The translations under genes were made by a program, and so were the position numbers. From the NCBI GenBank assembly GCA_965216625.1, contig OZ244186.1, positions 1,795,912-1,859,911 on the forward strand: DNA of 64,000 nt, given 5' to 3'. This stretch comes from Alphaproteobacteria bacterium. GTDB taxonomy: Bacteria > Pseudomonadota > Alphaproteobacteria > JABAAW01. The notes beneath the pieces were generated by a model. It did not search any database, had not been told where the DNA came from, and saw only the letters and a program-made list of their open reading frames with translations. Positions 10,833-54,597 of this stretch are shown in pieces. The stretch's first letter is position 1, and each line of letters begins with the position of its first letter.

Positions 10833-11087
10833 TGCTTTGCGAATGAGTGACGGGACGCTCAATAATAAACGGGCGCAAAACATCGCGTGCGTAGCACGCG
10901 GGGAGCGCGAGGGAGTAATCCCTCGCAAAAGACCCCGCGTCAGCGGGAGGAATTTATCCCCCCGCGCAGTAGTGCGCTTTATCTACGCGCGTAGCGCGTA
11001 GCCTCTTATTCAAAAGCGCGTGGGGGGATAAATTCCCCTCGCAGAAACGCGCAAGCTGACTCTTAACACGGCAAGGCGGGTTTGTTA
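10833..11087. repeat. Mosaic hairpin-repeat array (family also found at eight other loci in this window)
   Basis: It contains modules 'gcgcgagggagtaatccctcgcaaaagaccccgcgtcagcgg' and 'gcgcgtagcgcgtagcctcttattcaaaagcg', which recur elsewhere in the window. Confidence 0.85.
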
Positions 11088-12380
11088 TTATTTATTTTGT
11101 TTGTTGGCTTCTATTATTTGTTCCCATTCTCTAGCGATTTTTTGCCCTGCCATGATTTGTTCTGTTGTTAATATTTTTTTAATATCATTTATCCCTTCCC
11201 TTGCTTTTTTATTTCCCTCCTTGGCAGCGAGTAGAACCAAAGCATAACTGGTAGGAATATCTTGTTTAACACCATAACCATTAACATACATGACAGATAA
11301 ATTACCGAGCGCATTAGCGTGTCCTTGTTCTGCTGCTTTATGATACCACTCGGCTGCCTTTTGATAATCTTCCAGAACGCCTTTTCCTCTTTCGTACATC
11401 ACGCCCAAATTGTATTGTGCGTCAGCTAATCCTTGCTCTGCTGCCTTACGATACCACTCTGCTGCTTTTTGGTAGTCTTCTAACACTCCTCTTCCTATTC
11501 TATAAAAATCACCTAATTTGTATTGCGCAAAAGCTAATCCTTGTTCAGCTGCCTTGCGATACCACACGACAGCTTGCTTGTCATCTTTCTTAACTTCTTT
11601 TCCTTGTTCATGTAGCCTACCTAAATTGAATTGTGCATTAGCATGACCTTGCTCTGCTGCCATACGAAACCACTCGACAGCTTTCCTATCATCTTGCTTA
11701 ATTTCTTTTCCTTTTGCATACGATACGCCCAAATTGAATTGCGCATTAGCATGACCTTGCTCTGCTGCCATACGAAACCACTCGACAGCTTTCCTATCAT
11801 CTTGCTTGATTCCTTTTCCTTTTGCATACGATACGCCCAAATTGAATTGCGCATTAGCATGACCTTGCTCTGCTGCTTTATGAAACCACTCTACAGCCTG
11901 TGTATAATCTTGCTTAACGCCTATTTTTTTTGCATAAGAAACTCCCAAATTATATTGCGCCCCAGCAAGTCCTTGTTCGGCTGCCTTAAGCCACCACTCG
12001 GCAGCTTGTTTATAATCTTGCTTAACGCCTTCGCCTGCCTCGTACATCAAACTTAAATTATACTGCGCAATAGCATTTCCTTGTTTTGCTGCTTTGCGAT
12101 ACCACTTAACAGCTTGTGTATAATCTTGTTTGAGACCTTTCCCTTCTTTATACATCAAACCTAAATAGATTTGCGCGTCAGCATATCCTTGTTTTGCCGC
12201 TTTACGGAATAGAGGAATGGCTTCTGTGTAGTTTTTCTTTTTGTAAAATTTTACTGCTTGCTGGGCAATTTTCTTTGCACCCTGCGCGTGTGCGTCAAGA
12301 GCGAGTGGTAGCGACAAAGGCAAGGCGAGGGCAAGAGTAGTAGCAAAAACTGCCATCCAACGAGGATACTTACGGGACAT
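11088..12380 (-). CDS. Secreted Sel1-like repeat (SLR/TPR-like) protein
   Basis: A Sec signal peptide (MSRKYPRWMAVFATTLALALPLSLPLALDAHA) is followed by about 11 tandem Sel1 motifs ('A.YNLG.MY..G.GV.QD...A..W..KAA.QG.A.AQ'). The GC content is lower than in neighbouring genes. The start was refined to M47 of ORF 11088..12518. Confidence 0.85.
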   Translation of the reverse strand: MSRKYPRWMAVFATTLALALPLSLPLALDAHAQGAKKIAQQAVKFYKKKNYTEAIPLFRKAAKQGYADAQIYLGLMYKEGKGLKQDYTQAVKWYRKAAKQGNAIAQYNLSLMYEAGEGVKQDYKQAAEWWLKAAEQGLAGAQYNLGVSYAKKIGVKQDYTQAVEWFHKAAEQGHANAQFNLGVSYAKGKGIKQDDRKAVEWFRMAAEQGHANAQFNLGVSYAKGKEIKQDDRKAVEWFRMAAEQGHANAQFNLGRLHEQGKEVKKDDKQAVVWYRKAAEQGLAFAQYKLGDFYRIGRGVLEDYQKAAEWYRKAAEQGLADAQYNLGVMYERGKGVLEDYQKAAEWYHKAAEQGHANALGNLSVMYVNGYGVKQDIPTSYALVLLAAKEGNKKAREGINDIKKILTTEQIMAGQKIAREWEQIIEANKQNK

Positions 12381-13307
12381 GGGAAGACTCCTATTTTTCT
12401 TTGTTGATAGGATAAGAGTAGTAAAAACTTCATGCCTTGTCAACAAAGCTTGTGTCTGCCTTTGCGATGCGCGCTCCTCATAAAGCGCAGGCGAGCAAAG
12501 GCAGACACACACAAGCACAACAGAATCGCCGTGCCATGTTACGAGTCAGTATTGCGCGAGGCAAGCCTCGCGCTTTGGCACAAGAGGCTACGCGCTACGC
12601 GCGTAGTTTTTTCAATCTCTAGGACGAAGAAAACATTGTCGCCCGCCGTGTTAAGAGTCAGCTTGCGTATTGCTTCGCAATACGCTTTTGAATAAGAGGC
12701 GCACTTCGTGCGATTCTTTTTGTCGCTATCTTCTAGGCAAAATTAAAGACGCTCTACCATGCTATGAGTCAGCTTGCGCGAGGCAAGCCTCGCGCTTTGG
12801 GACAAGAGGCTACGCGCTACGCGCGTAGTTTTTTCAATCTCTAAGACGAGGAAAACAGAATCGCTCTACCATGTTAAGAGTCAGCTTGCGCGTTTCTGCG
12901 AAACGCGCTTTTGAACAAGAGGCGCGCTACGCGCGATTCTTTTTGTCGCTATCTTCTAGGCAAAATTAAAGACGCTCTACCATGTTAAGAGTCAGCATTG
13001 CGCGAGGCAAGCCTCGCGCTTTGGGATAAGAGGCGCACTGCGTGCGATTCTTTTTGTCTATAGGGCGAGGAAAACATTGTCGCCGCGCCGTGTTAAGAGT
13101 CAGCTTGCGCGTTTCTGCGAAACGCGCTTTTGAATAAGAGGCTACACACTTTGCGCTTCGCGCAAAGTGTGTAGAAGGCGCTATCGCGCCCCGCTGACGC
13201 GGGGTCTTTTGCGAGGGATTACTCCCTCGCGCTCCCCGCGTGCTACGCACGCGATGTTTTGCATCCGTTTATTATTGCGATTCCCGTCATTCGTTCGCGA
13301 GCTCGTC
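12381..13307. repeat. Tandem array of about eight ~105-110-bp units, each a conserved scaffold plus a variable perfect hairpin
   Basis: The scaffold 'ccatgttaagagtcagcttgcg[hairpin]cttttgaa.aagaggc[hairpin]gattctttttgtcgctatcttctaggcaaaattaaagacgctcta' repeats. Hairpin cores vary between units but stay self-complementary, e.g. gcgcgaggcaagcctcgcgc, gcgtattgcttcgcaatacgc, gcgcgtttctgcgaaacgcgc and ctacacactttgcgcttcgcgcaaagtgtgtag. Confidence 0.9.
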
Positions 13308-52730: not shown

Positions 52731-53365
52731 GGTCTCTCTTCCTATGGTGGTGTTTAACGGATAAGTGCTTACCCTCTGTGCACTCGCGCACGATACCTAT
52801 CTCGCAGGCGCAAGTCAAGAGGGAAAACTCGTTGGGGGGTGTGGGAAGTTTTAACGGCACACGCTCGCGCAACAGACTTGCTTTGTATGATGACGGGCGC
52901 AAAACATGCGCACGCGAAGCGTGCGCGGGGGGTGTGGGGGGATAAATTCCCCCCACGAAGACCCCGCGTCAGCGGAGCGCGCGTAAGCGCGCTTTATCTA
53001 CGCGCGTAGCGCGTAGCCTCTTGTTCAAAAGCGCGAGGCTTTGCCTCGCGTAATACTGACTCTTAACACGGCAGGGAGGTTATGTTTTCCTCGCCCTAGA
53101 GACAAAAAAAATCGCGCGAAGCGCGCCTCTTATTCAAAAGCGCGAGGCAATAGCATGGGGACGCATACGGCAAGCCGTATGCTATGGCGCATCGCAAAGG
53201 CAGACACGGTTTCATCTACGCGCGAAGCGCGTAGCCTCTTATTCAAAAGCGCGAGGCTTTGCCTCGCGCAAGCTGACTCGTAACGCGGAATAAAGTTGTT
53301 GACTCTCTTTAAATAATAAGTTAGAAAACCAGCAGATTAAATACAATCTAACAAAGGAAAACAAA
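52731..53365. repeat. Mosaic hairpin-repeat array, forming the left bracket of the HNH gene
   Basis: It ends with 'gcgcgaggctttgcctcgcgcaagctgactcgtaac', the reverse complement of the module that begins the right bracket. Confidence 0.85.
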
Positions 53366-54103
53366 ATGCCTGCAATTAAAAGAACTTCTACAAATCCACG
53401 ATGGAGCAGAGATGAAATTATTCTTGTTTTGCATTTATATGTACAGAAAAAAGGTGTTGTTTCTGAAGCACTGGAAAAAATTTATAGTAAACACCTTATT
53501 GATCTTGCTATGATGAATGGTATTCTTGTAGAAAAATATGAAAATTTTAGAAGTCCTGATTCGATTAATCTTAGAATCAGAAATTTTATTTCGGGAGACA
53601 GTAATCCGCCAAATACAAAAGGGTTGAGTGGGGGAGGCGGTTTTTATAGAGAAATACAGAATGAATTTAAAAATAATTTTTCTGAATTAGAAAAAGAAGC
53701 AAAAAAAATTCTTTCTCGCATTAATAAATTTCAAAAACCTATAAAAGAAGAACTTTATGAAGCGCATGTTAACGAAGGAGGAATTCGTCTTTTTCGTCAT
53801 AAAAGTCGTGAAAGAAACGCAAAAATTGTTTCAGACAAAAAAGAAAAAACCCTTAAAGAAAAGGGGTTTTTATCTTGCGAGGTGTGTGAATTTAATTTTT
53901 TAGAAAAATACGGTGAACACGGAGAAAATTTTATCGAATGCCATCATAACAAACCGCTATCAGAAATGAAAGATGGCGACAAAACATCCCTTTCAGACCT
54001 ATCCCTTGTCTGTTCCAATTGCCATCGCATGATTCATAAGAAAAAAGAGTATTTAACTATTGAAGAATTAAAAGAAATTATCTCGAAAAATAAATTCCGT
54101 TAA
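53366..54103 (+). CDS. HNH endonuclease with an uncharacterised N-terminal (wHTH-like) domain; low-GC island
   Basis: A C-terminal HNH/zinc-finger nuclease motif is present: 'CEVCEFNF...IECHHNKPLSE...LVCSNCHRMIH'. The N-terminal 'NPRWSRDEIILVLHLY...NFISGDS' resembles the recognition domain of a widespread solo-HNH family sometimes annotated as putative restriction or modification-dependent endonuclease. There is a strong SD (aaggaaaac) and GC is ~33%. Confidence 0.8.
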   Translation: MPAIKRTSTNPRWSRDEIILVLHLYVQKKGVVSEALEKIYSKHLIDLAMMNGILVEKYENFRSPDSINLRIRNFISGDSNPPNTKGLSGGGGFYREIQNEFKNNFSELEKEAKKILSRINKFQKPIKEELYEAHVNEGGIRLFRHKSRERNAKIVSDKKEKTLKEKGFLSCEVCEFNFLEKYGEHGENFIECHHNKPLSEMKDGDKTSLSDLSLVCSNCHRMIHKKKEYLTIEELKEIISKNKFR

Positions 54104-54597
54104 TATTCTTTCTATCTCTATCTTCTAGGCAAAATTAAAAACGCTGTACCATGTTATGAGTCAGCTTGCGCGAGGCAAGCCTCGCGCTTTTGAATAAGAG
54201 GCGCGCTGCGTGCGATTCTTTTTGTCTCTAGGTAAGCGGAAAACAATCTCGCTGTGCCGTGTTGTGAGGCAGTATTGCGCGAGGCAAGCCTCGCGCTTTT
54301 GAATAAGAGGCTACACACTTTGCGCTACGCGCAAAGTGTGTAGAAGGCGCTTACGCGCCCCGCTGACGCGGGGTCTTTTGCGGGGGAACTTCGTCCCCCC
54401 ACACCCCCCATGCGCAAAACTCACTTCGCCTTACGGCTCGCTCGTCTTGCGTATGTTACCTAATGCAAAAAGCCCGTGTCTATCTCTGCGAAGCGCGCCC
54501 ATAAGGAAGCGCAAGCAAGCAGAGATAGACAAACACACAAGCGCGCCCGCAAGCAAGCAAACATAGCCAGACAAACACACAAGCGCACGCGCTCCCG
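54104..54597. repeat. Mosaic hairpin-repeat array, forming the right bracket of the HNH gene
   Basis: It starts with 'cttctaggcaaaattaaaaacgctgtaccatgttatgagtcagcttgcgcgaggcaagcctcgcg'. Confidence 0.85.

Follow-up and report, generated by a model that had tools for sequence, protein, structure and literature searches.

Polar mosaic repeat arrays at intergenic sites of an alphaproteobacterial genome and their orientation toward low-GC accessory genes

The stretch of DNA analyzed here, referred to throughout as the window, comprises 64,000 nucleotides of contig OZ244186.1 (positions 1,795,912 to 1,859,911) from an alphaproteobacterium of the lineage JABAAW01 (assembly GCA_965216625.1); it is gene-dense, with a GC content of about 55%, and nine of its intergenic regions are occupied by arrays of hairpin-forming repeats. 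Each array is a polar composite consisting of a head, in which A-rich linkers alternate with 4-6 GC-rich hairpins around a 17-nt core, followed by 0-7 tail units of about 110 bp. Based on this common architecture, on the strict orientation of the tails toward low-GC genes (hereafter, cargo) and on the behavior of the arrays in related genomes, we propose that the nine loci constitute one lineage-specific family of intergenic mosaic elements that works much as the neisserial intergenic mosaic elements (NIME) do and serves as a platform for cassette exchange, a reading to which we give a probability of roughly 0.55.

Polarity of the arrays and turnover of their content

The initial annotation of the window had recognized a single mosaic repeat family in nine separate intergenic loci. 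In agreement with this, BLAST comparison of the nine intervals with the whole window gave matches nowhere else, the shared sequence extending over 10839-11073, 12452-13298, 16396-16905, 20108-20610 and 33736-34201 (arrays 1 to 5) and over 42547-42677, 46683-47144, 52849-53284 and 54105-54524 (arrays 6 to 9). A repeat finder also recovered families linking the nine loci, the four modules quoted in that annotation were all found, on both strands, and the 17-mer core AGACCCCGCGTCAGCGG is present in 10 copies without a mismatch, at least one in each of the nine arrays, none being expected by chance (100 shuffles). The list of intervals was correct except for the start of the third, which lies at the gene boundary at 16254 and not at 16330, and the identities given to the flanking genes (HlyD, Sel1, FtsH, PP-loop/TilS and HNH) were also right. 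The nine intergenic intervals add up to 4,987 bp, or 7.8% of the window (repeat-covered bases, 5.8%), and they are the longest intergenic gaps save those at 37191-37475 (285 bp), 30673-30933 (261 bp) and 60645-61087 (443 bp).

The window was compared with strain L001, an independent metagenome contig 97.5% identical to it, and with CBDCGG01, a long-read metagenome-assembled genome (MAG) of an uncultured alphaproteobacterium whose main contig, contig_2, is 1.63 Mb long. When a genome collection was scanned with an extended core, 24 eight-kb blocks of CBDCGG01 were retrieved, spread from 40 kb to 1.48 Mb along contig_2, together with two more distant alphaproteobacterial MAGs. Since the genes that CBDCGG01 shares with the window are about 88-94% identical (around 92%), this genome represents a sister species. 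L001 carries the 16254-16971 array at 99-100% identity and the long-read MAG has arrays at the same sites; therefore, the arrays are real sequence and not the product of misassembly. The warning that they are a major assembly hazard was nevertheless well founded, and it applies to binning as well as to assembly in this clade.

The orientation of the arrays was analyzed in 32 non-redundant arrays of single orientation, from the window and from the CBDCGG01 blocks outside it, by determining the GC content over the 600 bp beyond each end. The head-side flank was below 47% GC in none of the 32 arrays and the tail-side flank in 17 (Fisher p = 8e-7; Wilcoxon p = 9e-5), and when neighboring open reading frames (ORFs) were counted, 0 of 48 head-side neighbors and 22 of 43 tail-side neighbors were low-GC. 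Low-GC genes sit between pairs of arrays with their heads outward (head>tail> cargo <tail<head), examples of bracketed cargo being Sel1 and HNH in the window and, in CBDCGG01, a three-gene cluster in L012 and single genes in L025, L014 and L004; for others only one side is visible. Array placement had been described as indifferent to the direction of the flanking genes, and this is what was found: 23 genes read into the head side and 14 away from it, the corresponding figures for the tail side being 15 and 18, and an orientation set by neighboring transcription was rejected because no preference emerged. These data indicate that array orientation follows base composition and not neighboring transcription. 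Enrichment of arrays beside genes of atypical GC content, a check proposed in the initial annotation, was confirmed in the window, with an array at 5 of 8 low-GC junctions versus 4 of 39 others (p = 0.004). As to the individual abutting genes that had been called low-GC, the description holds for Sel1 (0.42), the gene for a 372-aa protein (0.39) and HNH (0.31), but not for RTX (0.58).

On a larger scale, the orientation of the cores along contig_2 looks regionally biased, being mostly - at 40-400 and 1300-1480 kb and mostly + at 568-1200 kb, which hints at a replichore effect; the GC/AT skew of the 8-kb blocks is too noisy to place the origin and the terminus.

The comparison of L001 with the window revealed a backbone identity of 97-100% that collapses only at 10750-13250, a region containing Sel1 and both of its arrays, and at 20000-20750, where the array between ftsH and tilS is completely rearranged in L001. 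The 16254-16971 array is better conserved in L001 than its coding flanks, and beside Sel1 this strain harbors an extra gene (246 aa, GC 0.30) with pieces of the M hairpin module at its borders. In CBDCGG01 an array is retained at each of the comparable sites (5-6), but with different content: the head alleles are different from those of the window at most sites, and at the uvrC/moaA site the core lies on the opposite strand. The gap between a spoU-like gene and a gene for a 363-aa protein was compared by joining blocks L002 and L026, which are contiguous in the CBDCGG01 contig. In the sister species it holds one array of about 450 bp (head, tails and a partial inverted head), whereas in the window it spans about 7.95 kb with the order array-RTX-array-HNH-array, RTX, array 8 and HNH being together absent from CBDCGG01. 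L010 was left out as a presence/absence case because it is syntenic with L014 on the left flank only. The cargo orthologs show 53-60% protein identity (Sel1, about 55-60%) versus 90-98% nucleotide identity in the backbone. Taken together, the L001 and CBDCGG01 comparisons indicate that the sites are stable, that array content turns over fast and that cargo is gained, lost or replaced at these sites.

Architecture of the arrays and cargo genes

The arrays and the genes at their tails are listed below; the + strand of an element is that on which its core is borne.

Array 1, 10833-11087 (+): head just after the hlyD stop, with the linker GCAAAACAT at 10875 and the core at 10930-10946; one tail unit, the tail abutting the 3' end of Sel1
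Sel1 gene, 11088-12380 (-): Sel1-repeat protein, GC 0.42, between arrays 1 and 2 with their tails inward; long ORF to 12518
Array 2, 12381-13307 (-): head adjoining the epimerase stop, core 13191-13207 (-); roughly 6-7 tail units, each about 110 bp long, directed toward the Sel1 promoter; long S hairpin at about 12452-12510 beside a TTGACA promoter-like site
Array 3, 16254-16971 (both orientations): convergent head-out pair without cargo, cores 16534-16550 (+) and 16829-16845 (-); 33-nt terminal inverted repeat, 16356-16388 and 16937-16969
Array 4, 19991-20602 (both orientations): between ftsH and tilS, E-type heads in both orientations, core 20301-20317 (+); 169-bp near-perfect palindrome at 20327-20495 (83-nt arms, 98% complementary)
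372-aa protein gene, 32588-33706 (+): GC 0.39, no Pfam or PADLOC family; 3' end facing the tail of array 5
Array 5, 33707-34273 (-): head adjoining the start of a DNA methylase gene, core 34074-34090 (-); tail abutting the 3' end of the low-GC 372-aa gene
Array 6, 42497-42766 (+): between uvrC and moaA, E-type head only, core 42645-42661
Array 7, 46648-47156 (+): E-type head after the spoU-like gene, core 46804-46820; tail with many GGGG..CCCC hairpins, abutting the 3' end of RTX
RTX gene, 47157-52730 (-): RTX repeat protein of 1857 aa, GC 0.58, flanked by the array 7 tail and the array 8 head
Array 8, 52731-53365 (+): head adjoining the RTX start, core 52959-52975; two to three tail units toward the HNH promoter and start
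HNH gene, 53366-54103 (+): HNH endonuclease, GC 0.31, between arrays 8 and 9 with their tails inward; absent from the sister species
Array 9, 54104-54597 (-): tail directly after the HNH stop, core 54360-54376 (-); S-type modules at about 54470-54597 beside the stop of the 363-aa gene

In arrays 3 and 4 the opposed heads have nothing between them.

The grammar of the arrays was read from 47 copies aligned on the core. The 5' part of the head consists of an optional long S/H0 hairpin, GCTTTGTATGATGACGG, GCAAAACAT, hairpin H1, GGGG and hairpin H2, or alternatively of an E module (GTAGCGGTAGTGTCCCAAAAAACGGGACTCGCGCATTGACGAGTAAAC), and the 3' part of the core, (C/A)AAAGA-CCCCGC-GTCA-GCGG(G/A)G, hairpin H4, CTTT(AT)CT and hairpin H5, which is bracketed by CTAC...GTAG; besides GCAAAACAT, the A-rich linkers include CAAAAGA and TTCAAAAGCG. 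A tail unit reads CCTCTTATTCAAAAGCG, hairpin H6, AAGCTGACTCTTAACATGG, a T1 or T2 segment and a further hairpin. Each hairpin slot is filled by 17-32 distinct alleles, a few of them dominant, and the stems remain perfectly complementary through changes on both sides, as in the H1 alleles CGCGTGC-GTA-GCACGCG, CGTGCGC-GTA-GCGCACG and GCGCACGC-GAA-GCGTGCGC. Some hairpins also sit within the loop or an arm of another hairpin, with M and G hairpins inserted in H1 and H6. The core itself is nearly constant across genomes that differ by 2-8% elsewhere, since 49 of 55 clear copies (at most 2 mismatches) are perfect, four have one mismatch and two have two, and segments of 70 nt of the head are identical across genomes about 8% different elsewhere.

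Both strands of the arrays fold far better than shuffled sequence (z of the fold energy, -7.1 for the core strand and -7.3 for the opposite one), and they differ in their loops and in their homopolymer runs. On the core strand the loops GAA, GTA, GCA and GTAA occur 37, 27, 19 and 22 times versus 3, 2, 1 and 0 times for their complements TTC, TAC, TGC and TTAC, a bias toward GNA/GNRA loops that persists when the stem arms are swapped between alleles. On the same strand A-runs precede 74 of 214 hairpins and T-runs follow only 10 (binomial p = 3e-13), and hence it is on the opposite strand that T-runs follow hairpins, 74 times in all. Terminator-like sites, as judged by consensus match, are enriched 2-3 fold (44 versus 14.2 expected, and 33 versus 15.3 expected). 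In all heads, for instance at 10895-10950, the CGCGGGG that closes H1 and the CCCCGCG of the core are perfectly complementary, which allows the core two alternative pairings, one upstream that encloses H2 and one downstream that forms the CCCCGC-GTCA-GCGGGG hairpin; the minimum-energy fold takes the upstream pairing.

Several small features were noted at the edges of the arrays or within them. At the array 6 junction (42482-42511) the last 15 bases of uvrC, including the stop (CACTTTCGCGGATGA), are tandemly duplicated, a single copy being present in the sister species, and GCGA(A/G)..GA motifs similar to this duplication recur closely behind the stop codons of hlyD and the epimerase gene, preceding the heads. 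A 195-aa gene call in L001 (11995-12582) and the matching ORF of the window (16474-17061) lie wholly within a hairpin array and have no Pfam family; both are probably spurious ORFs arising from the repeats. A coding potential of the arrays in general was rejected, because module lengths change in steps that are not divisible by 3 and the ORFs fall within palindromes.

The cargo identified across the genomes includes, besides Sel1, an HNH endonuclease with a phage-like nuclease domain, a methylase-HNH fusion, a GmrSD/HEC-05-like nuclease, an OmpA-like and a coiled-coil protein, a family of membrane proteins of about 370 aa and several proteins without a family. L014 contains a further low-GC locus, a type II restriction-modification pair, the flanks of which lie outside the visible stretch. 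Cargo genes have TTGACA-type promoter-like sites just inside the junction with the array, which falls at variable points of the tail unit, often just past the CTGACTCGTAAC linker. Cargo paralogs are only 26-63% identical, and no identical cargo was found at two sites. The Sel1 gene contains at least 8 tandem repeats of 108 bp (11296-12267; 62-90% identity), and its conservation between genomes extends over the 5' end and the promoter region (82-88%) but not over the repeat region. The 372-aa protein has an ortholog in the sister species with 53% protein identity. Exact-protein look-ups for HNH, the 372-aa protein, SpoU, MoaA and the 363-aa protein retrieved no record.

Some of the neighboring genes deserve mention. 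A staphylococcal-nuclease-like gene precedes the 372-aa gene and a type II-like DNA methylase gene (GC 0.51) lies beyond array 5, so that 31951-35002 may be a small defence neighborhood. The RTX protein has extensive internal repeats, with periods of 27 bp and about 600 bp, and a type I secretion pair (ABC transporter and HlyD; 7653-10832) is encoded about 36 kb from its gene. In L025 of the long-read MAG (5983-7996) the gene for the glycyl-tRNA synthetase beta subunit is broken into two ORFs (306 + 345 aa), probably by a frameshift error of the assembly, and its GC content (0.42-0.45) is low for a housekeeping gene.

Proposed mechanism and alternative origins

The arrays are residents of fixed intergenic sites and their modules turn over by replacement, inversion, duplication and nesting. 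According to the NIME-like reading, we infer that recombination or gene conversion among the many copies would be the simplest cause of this turnover. The arrays would thereby supply portable homology and fragile palindromic DNA at the places where accessory cassettes are exchanged, as has been proposed for NIMEs and minimal mobile elements. In addition, RNA polymerase leaving the cargo would meet stacks of hairpins with T-runs, which may behave as stacked intrinsic-terminator-like insulators around the AT-rich cassettes. The initial annotation had offered two roles for the arrays, as preferred integration sites or as the vehicle of the foreign genes. The former is favored and made more precise by the strict tail polarity (17/32 versus 0/32) and by the cargo polymorphism at conserved array sites. 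The latter does not agree with the persistence of arrays without cargo, with the lack of presence/absence polymorphism of the sites themselves (5-6 sites), with ragged ends that lack a target-site duplication, or with the fact that no transposase was found in about 300 kb and no match in phage and plasmid collections.

Several points weigh against the proposal. The likeness to terminators goes no further than a consensus match, short T-runs (TTTTG, TCTTTTG) being numerous, and the stable GNA/GNRA loops are on the strand opposite to that of the T-runs, so that the two asymmetries single out no functional strand. Some half of the arrays lie between two genes of normal GC content, and the low-GC gene at 59688-60644 has no array; this NYN-domain gene (GC 0.41), which scores against the PADLOC candidate defence family HEC-09 with E = 2e-38, adjoins an AT-rich gap of 443 bp (to 61087) that also lacks an array, an exception to the link between arrays and cargo. 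Part of the Sel1 divergence may be due to repeat shuffling within the gene and not to replacement. The sample amounts to about 300 kb from three related genomes; since the loci were picked by a perfect core match and several array pairs bracket the same cargo, the counts lack full independence. Finally, homology-driven exchange alone leaves the constant outward heads unexplained, and no recombinase or core-binding protein was identified.

An unlikely alternative, but the one that survives best, is that the modules are non-autonomous elements of the repetitive extragenic palindrome (REP)/REPIN or MITE (miniature inverted-repeat transposable element) type, copied by a transposase encoded elsewhere (RAYT, IS110-type or other); the arrays would then grow by nested insertion, and they would accumulate beside AT-rich accessory genes since insertions are tolerated there. 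The nesting of hairpins in the loops and arms of others is in line with such an origin, the invariance of the 17-nt core is that expected of a protein recognition site and the strand-specific GNA triloops are those expected of an element used as single-stranded DNA. A high copy number (about 10 cores per 64 kb), the possible replichore bias of core orientation on contig_2 and the existence of alphaproteobacterial REP families without a known dedicated transposase (PMC3733652) point in the same direction. Nevertheless, no presence/absence polymorphism was observed at 5-6 comparable sites, even at about 92% identity, neither a target-site duplication nor defined ends were found, the outer and inner ends of the arrays being ragged, and tolerance of insertions alone does not predict that 17 of 17 tails face cargo. 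The tags of known REPs are likewise missing beside the stems: with stems of 7 bp or more and up to 1 mismatch considered, the window contains no stem-loop tagged with GTAG, the CTAC...GTAG of H5 lying within the stem, and of its ten CGTC-tagged stem-loops none is inside an array, the core stem being CCCCGC/GCGGGG. Moreover, a phmmer search with an approximate E. coli RAYT-like query against the ORFs in all six frames of some 300 kb (only about 15% of a genome) gave 3.7 as the best E-value.

A bolder and more doubtful proposal is that the head-out pairs form a dispersed, chromosome-wide cassette platform in which the 17-nt core would be the recognition or crossover site of a putative recombinase, one possibility being a single-strand-specific or IS110/Piv-type enzyme, as for dRS3 in Neisseria. 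The tail-tail junction would be the place where such a recombinase inserts, inverts or exchanges AT-rich cassettes, and the co-oriented terminator-like hairpin stacks would constitute a built-in directional insulator. If true, the proposal would add a new class to the gene-capture systems of bacteria, separate from both integrons and classical transposons.

It is improbable that the arrays are passive intergenic satellite DNA, whose link with low-GC genes would be a by-product of a shared confinement to dispensable regions. Array content is indeed highly variable, half of the arrays have no cargo and the source is a small MAG of little-known biology. Against this stand the strict polarity, the core and the 70-nt head segments that are identical across genomes about 8% apart elsewhere, the array that is more conserved than its coding flanks, and the strand asymmetry of loops and A-runs. 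The initial annotation had considered that satellites would be equally frequent beside native and foreign genes and would show no insertion polymorphism; equal frequency was not seen, but insertion-site polymorphism was absent at the 5-6 sites compared.

We attach even less credit to the view that the head-out pairs are long terminal inverted repeats of foldback-like composite transposons carrying the low-GC genes, with empty pairs and solo arrays as deletion derivatives. The recurrence of the head>tail> cargo <tail<head arrangement in at least six independent places, the empty pair with its 33-nt terminal inverted repeat, the variable number of tails, as in foldback elements, and the rare 5' extension CAATAATAAACGG shared by both heads around the Sel1 gene of the window would all fit this view. 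However, arrays stay where cargo is absent, the left and right arrays of a pair usually have different head alleles, the outer boundaries are ragged and the 33-nt inverted repeat is not accompanied by a direct duplication. The absence of identical cargo from any two sites and the divergence of the paralogs also speak against it; no transposase was found, and nothing similar is present in phage, plasmid and viral collections (no match by blastn of a whole array against the plasmid and phage collections, and none in a core-pattern scan of viral contigs). The same scan of metagenome contigs gave 8 matches, all of them unrelated single copies, and a core 20-mer was located in 11 unrelated contigs (8 from metagenomes and 3 from non-alphaproteobacterial genomes), in several of which it extends to GGGGTC and is part of an ordinary terminator-like hairpin, GACCCCGC-GTCA-GCGGGGTC, followed by T-rich sequence.

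Least probable of all is that the heads are genes or cis-elements for a structured RNA read from head to tail (an mRNA 3'-end stabilizer or a regulatory RNA acting on the cargo), because the compensated stems, conserved linkers, one-strand GNA/GNRA loops, core-strand excess of G·T over A·C mismatches (32 versus 19, p = 0.09), fold energy and 23 of 37 heads directly after a gene read in the same direction are offset by an opposite strand that folds equally well, by 14 of 37 heads facing away from the neighboring gene, by a free variation in hairpin number and length that argues against one defined fold, by the lack of promoter-like sites upstream of the heads and of matches in Rfam 15 (none at the gathering score and only chance-level ones at E up to 1), and by the fact that compensation in perfect DNA palindromes can come from intrastrand templated repair without selection at the RNA level. 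A search for tRNA and tmRNA found none, and a tRNA-like origin of the GGTAGAGCG and CTGACTCTTAAC motifs was rejected because their order is wrong.

Comparison with known repeat and cassette systems

BIME, NIME, RIME and similar intergenic mosaic repeats were recognized decades ago, and their function is still argued. The initial annotation had taken the arrays for an apparently new mosaic element; they are indeed new as a sequence family, but elements of this kind were already known. CRISPR arrays were rejected, since there is no regular repeat-spacer pattern.

The arrays resemble integron attC sites, such as the Vibrio cholerae repeats, in being structured variable repeats between accessory cassettes and in the importance of strand-specific folding. 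They differ in being dispersed along the chromosome (loci over 40 kb to 1.48 Mb of contig_2) and not gathered on one platform, in lying inverted, not direct, around the cargo, and in bordering cargo that has its own promoter-like sites. Integron cassettes are co-oriented, have no promoters and lie next to intI, with RYYYAAC/GTTRRRY core sites in attC. The core sites of the arrays are also wrong, as the L6 variants (GTTACGA, GTTAAGA and GTTATGA) do not fit GTTRRRY, and identity with attC was rejected on these grounds. No integrase turned up, although no genome-wide integrase search was made.

In gamma-proteobacteria, GTAG-type REPs are imperfect palindromes of 20-40 nt with the GTAG tetranucleotide immediately 5' of the stem, and a cognate RAYT (Y1 HUH transposase) gene lies between copies of the repeat. 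The REP, BIME and REPIN families (PMC3116915, PMC3333891) share with the arrays a mosaic of GC-rich extragenic palindromes and conserved linkers, a location after genes, a high copy number and proposed roles in termination, mRNA stability and protein binding. In contrast to these families, the arrays have no GTAG tag 5' of the stem, their units are far longer (200-900 bp), their hairpins are co-oriented and not alternating, no REPIN-type inverted doublet serves as a unit, and no RAYT was found by the search described above. CGTC-tagged REPs, a group to which dRS3 also belongs, predominate in alphaproteobacteria, including Micavibrio and the RPE-4/6 of Rickettsia; in them a CGTC tag is followed by a stem of 8-9 bp whose first two pairs are A/T, a loop of 4-5 nt and a CCA tail (PMC3733652). 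The arrays are similar to them in their alphaproteobacterial host, their small GC palindromes with 4-nt loops, the lack of a known dedicated transposase and their clustering in some taxa, but the core stem lacks both the A/T first two pairs and the CCA tail, and the arrays contain no CGTC-tagged stem-loop.

The closest parallel is provided by the NIME arrays, in which dRS3 inverted repeats bound RS elements and which are syntenic but dynamic, are flanked by more diverged genes and have been proposed to contain recombinase sites (PMC1797815). As in NIMEs and minimal mobile elements, long intergenic arrays combine a short conserved palindromic element with many variable modules, keep their synteny between genomes while their content changes, and flank diverged or exchanged genes of the variable, surface or restriction-modification type, a resemblance that is one of behavior and not of homology. 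Unlike NIMEs, the arrays reside in an alphaproteobacterial host, have unrelated sequences without dRS3 (ATTCCCN8GGGAAT gave 0 matches in the window with up to 1 mismatch allowed), are associated with no known phage or transposase and follow a fixed head-to-tail grammar with strict polarity toward low-GC cargo. To our knowledge, such a polarity has not been described for NIMEs. Analogies of form only exist with the RIME of Rhizobium, which are mosaic palindromic intergenic repeats in alphaproteobacteria, with foldback transposons, whose long inverted termini consist of tandem subrepeats with or without central cargo, and with the GC clusters of yeast mitochondria, GC-rich palindromes that border AT-rich DNA.

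Taken together, these comparisons show that the array family fails the defining sequence tests of GTAG-REP, CGTC-REP, dRS3/NIME, attC and the Rfam families; it works like NIME or BIME and is a member of neither. The genome of the closest sequenced relative is small, about 1.65 Mb, and an estimate from the window suggests that roughly 6-8% of the genome DNA consists of such arrays. They generate spurious ORF calls, and they can be used as markers for accessory and defence islets in related MAGs. What sets this family apart from the known ones is its readable grammar together with its strict polarity toward AT-rich accessory genes, and this polarity makes two ideas testable in one system, namely, that arrays are platforms for cassette exchange and that arrays are transcriptional insulators of foreign DNA.

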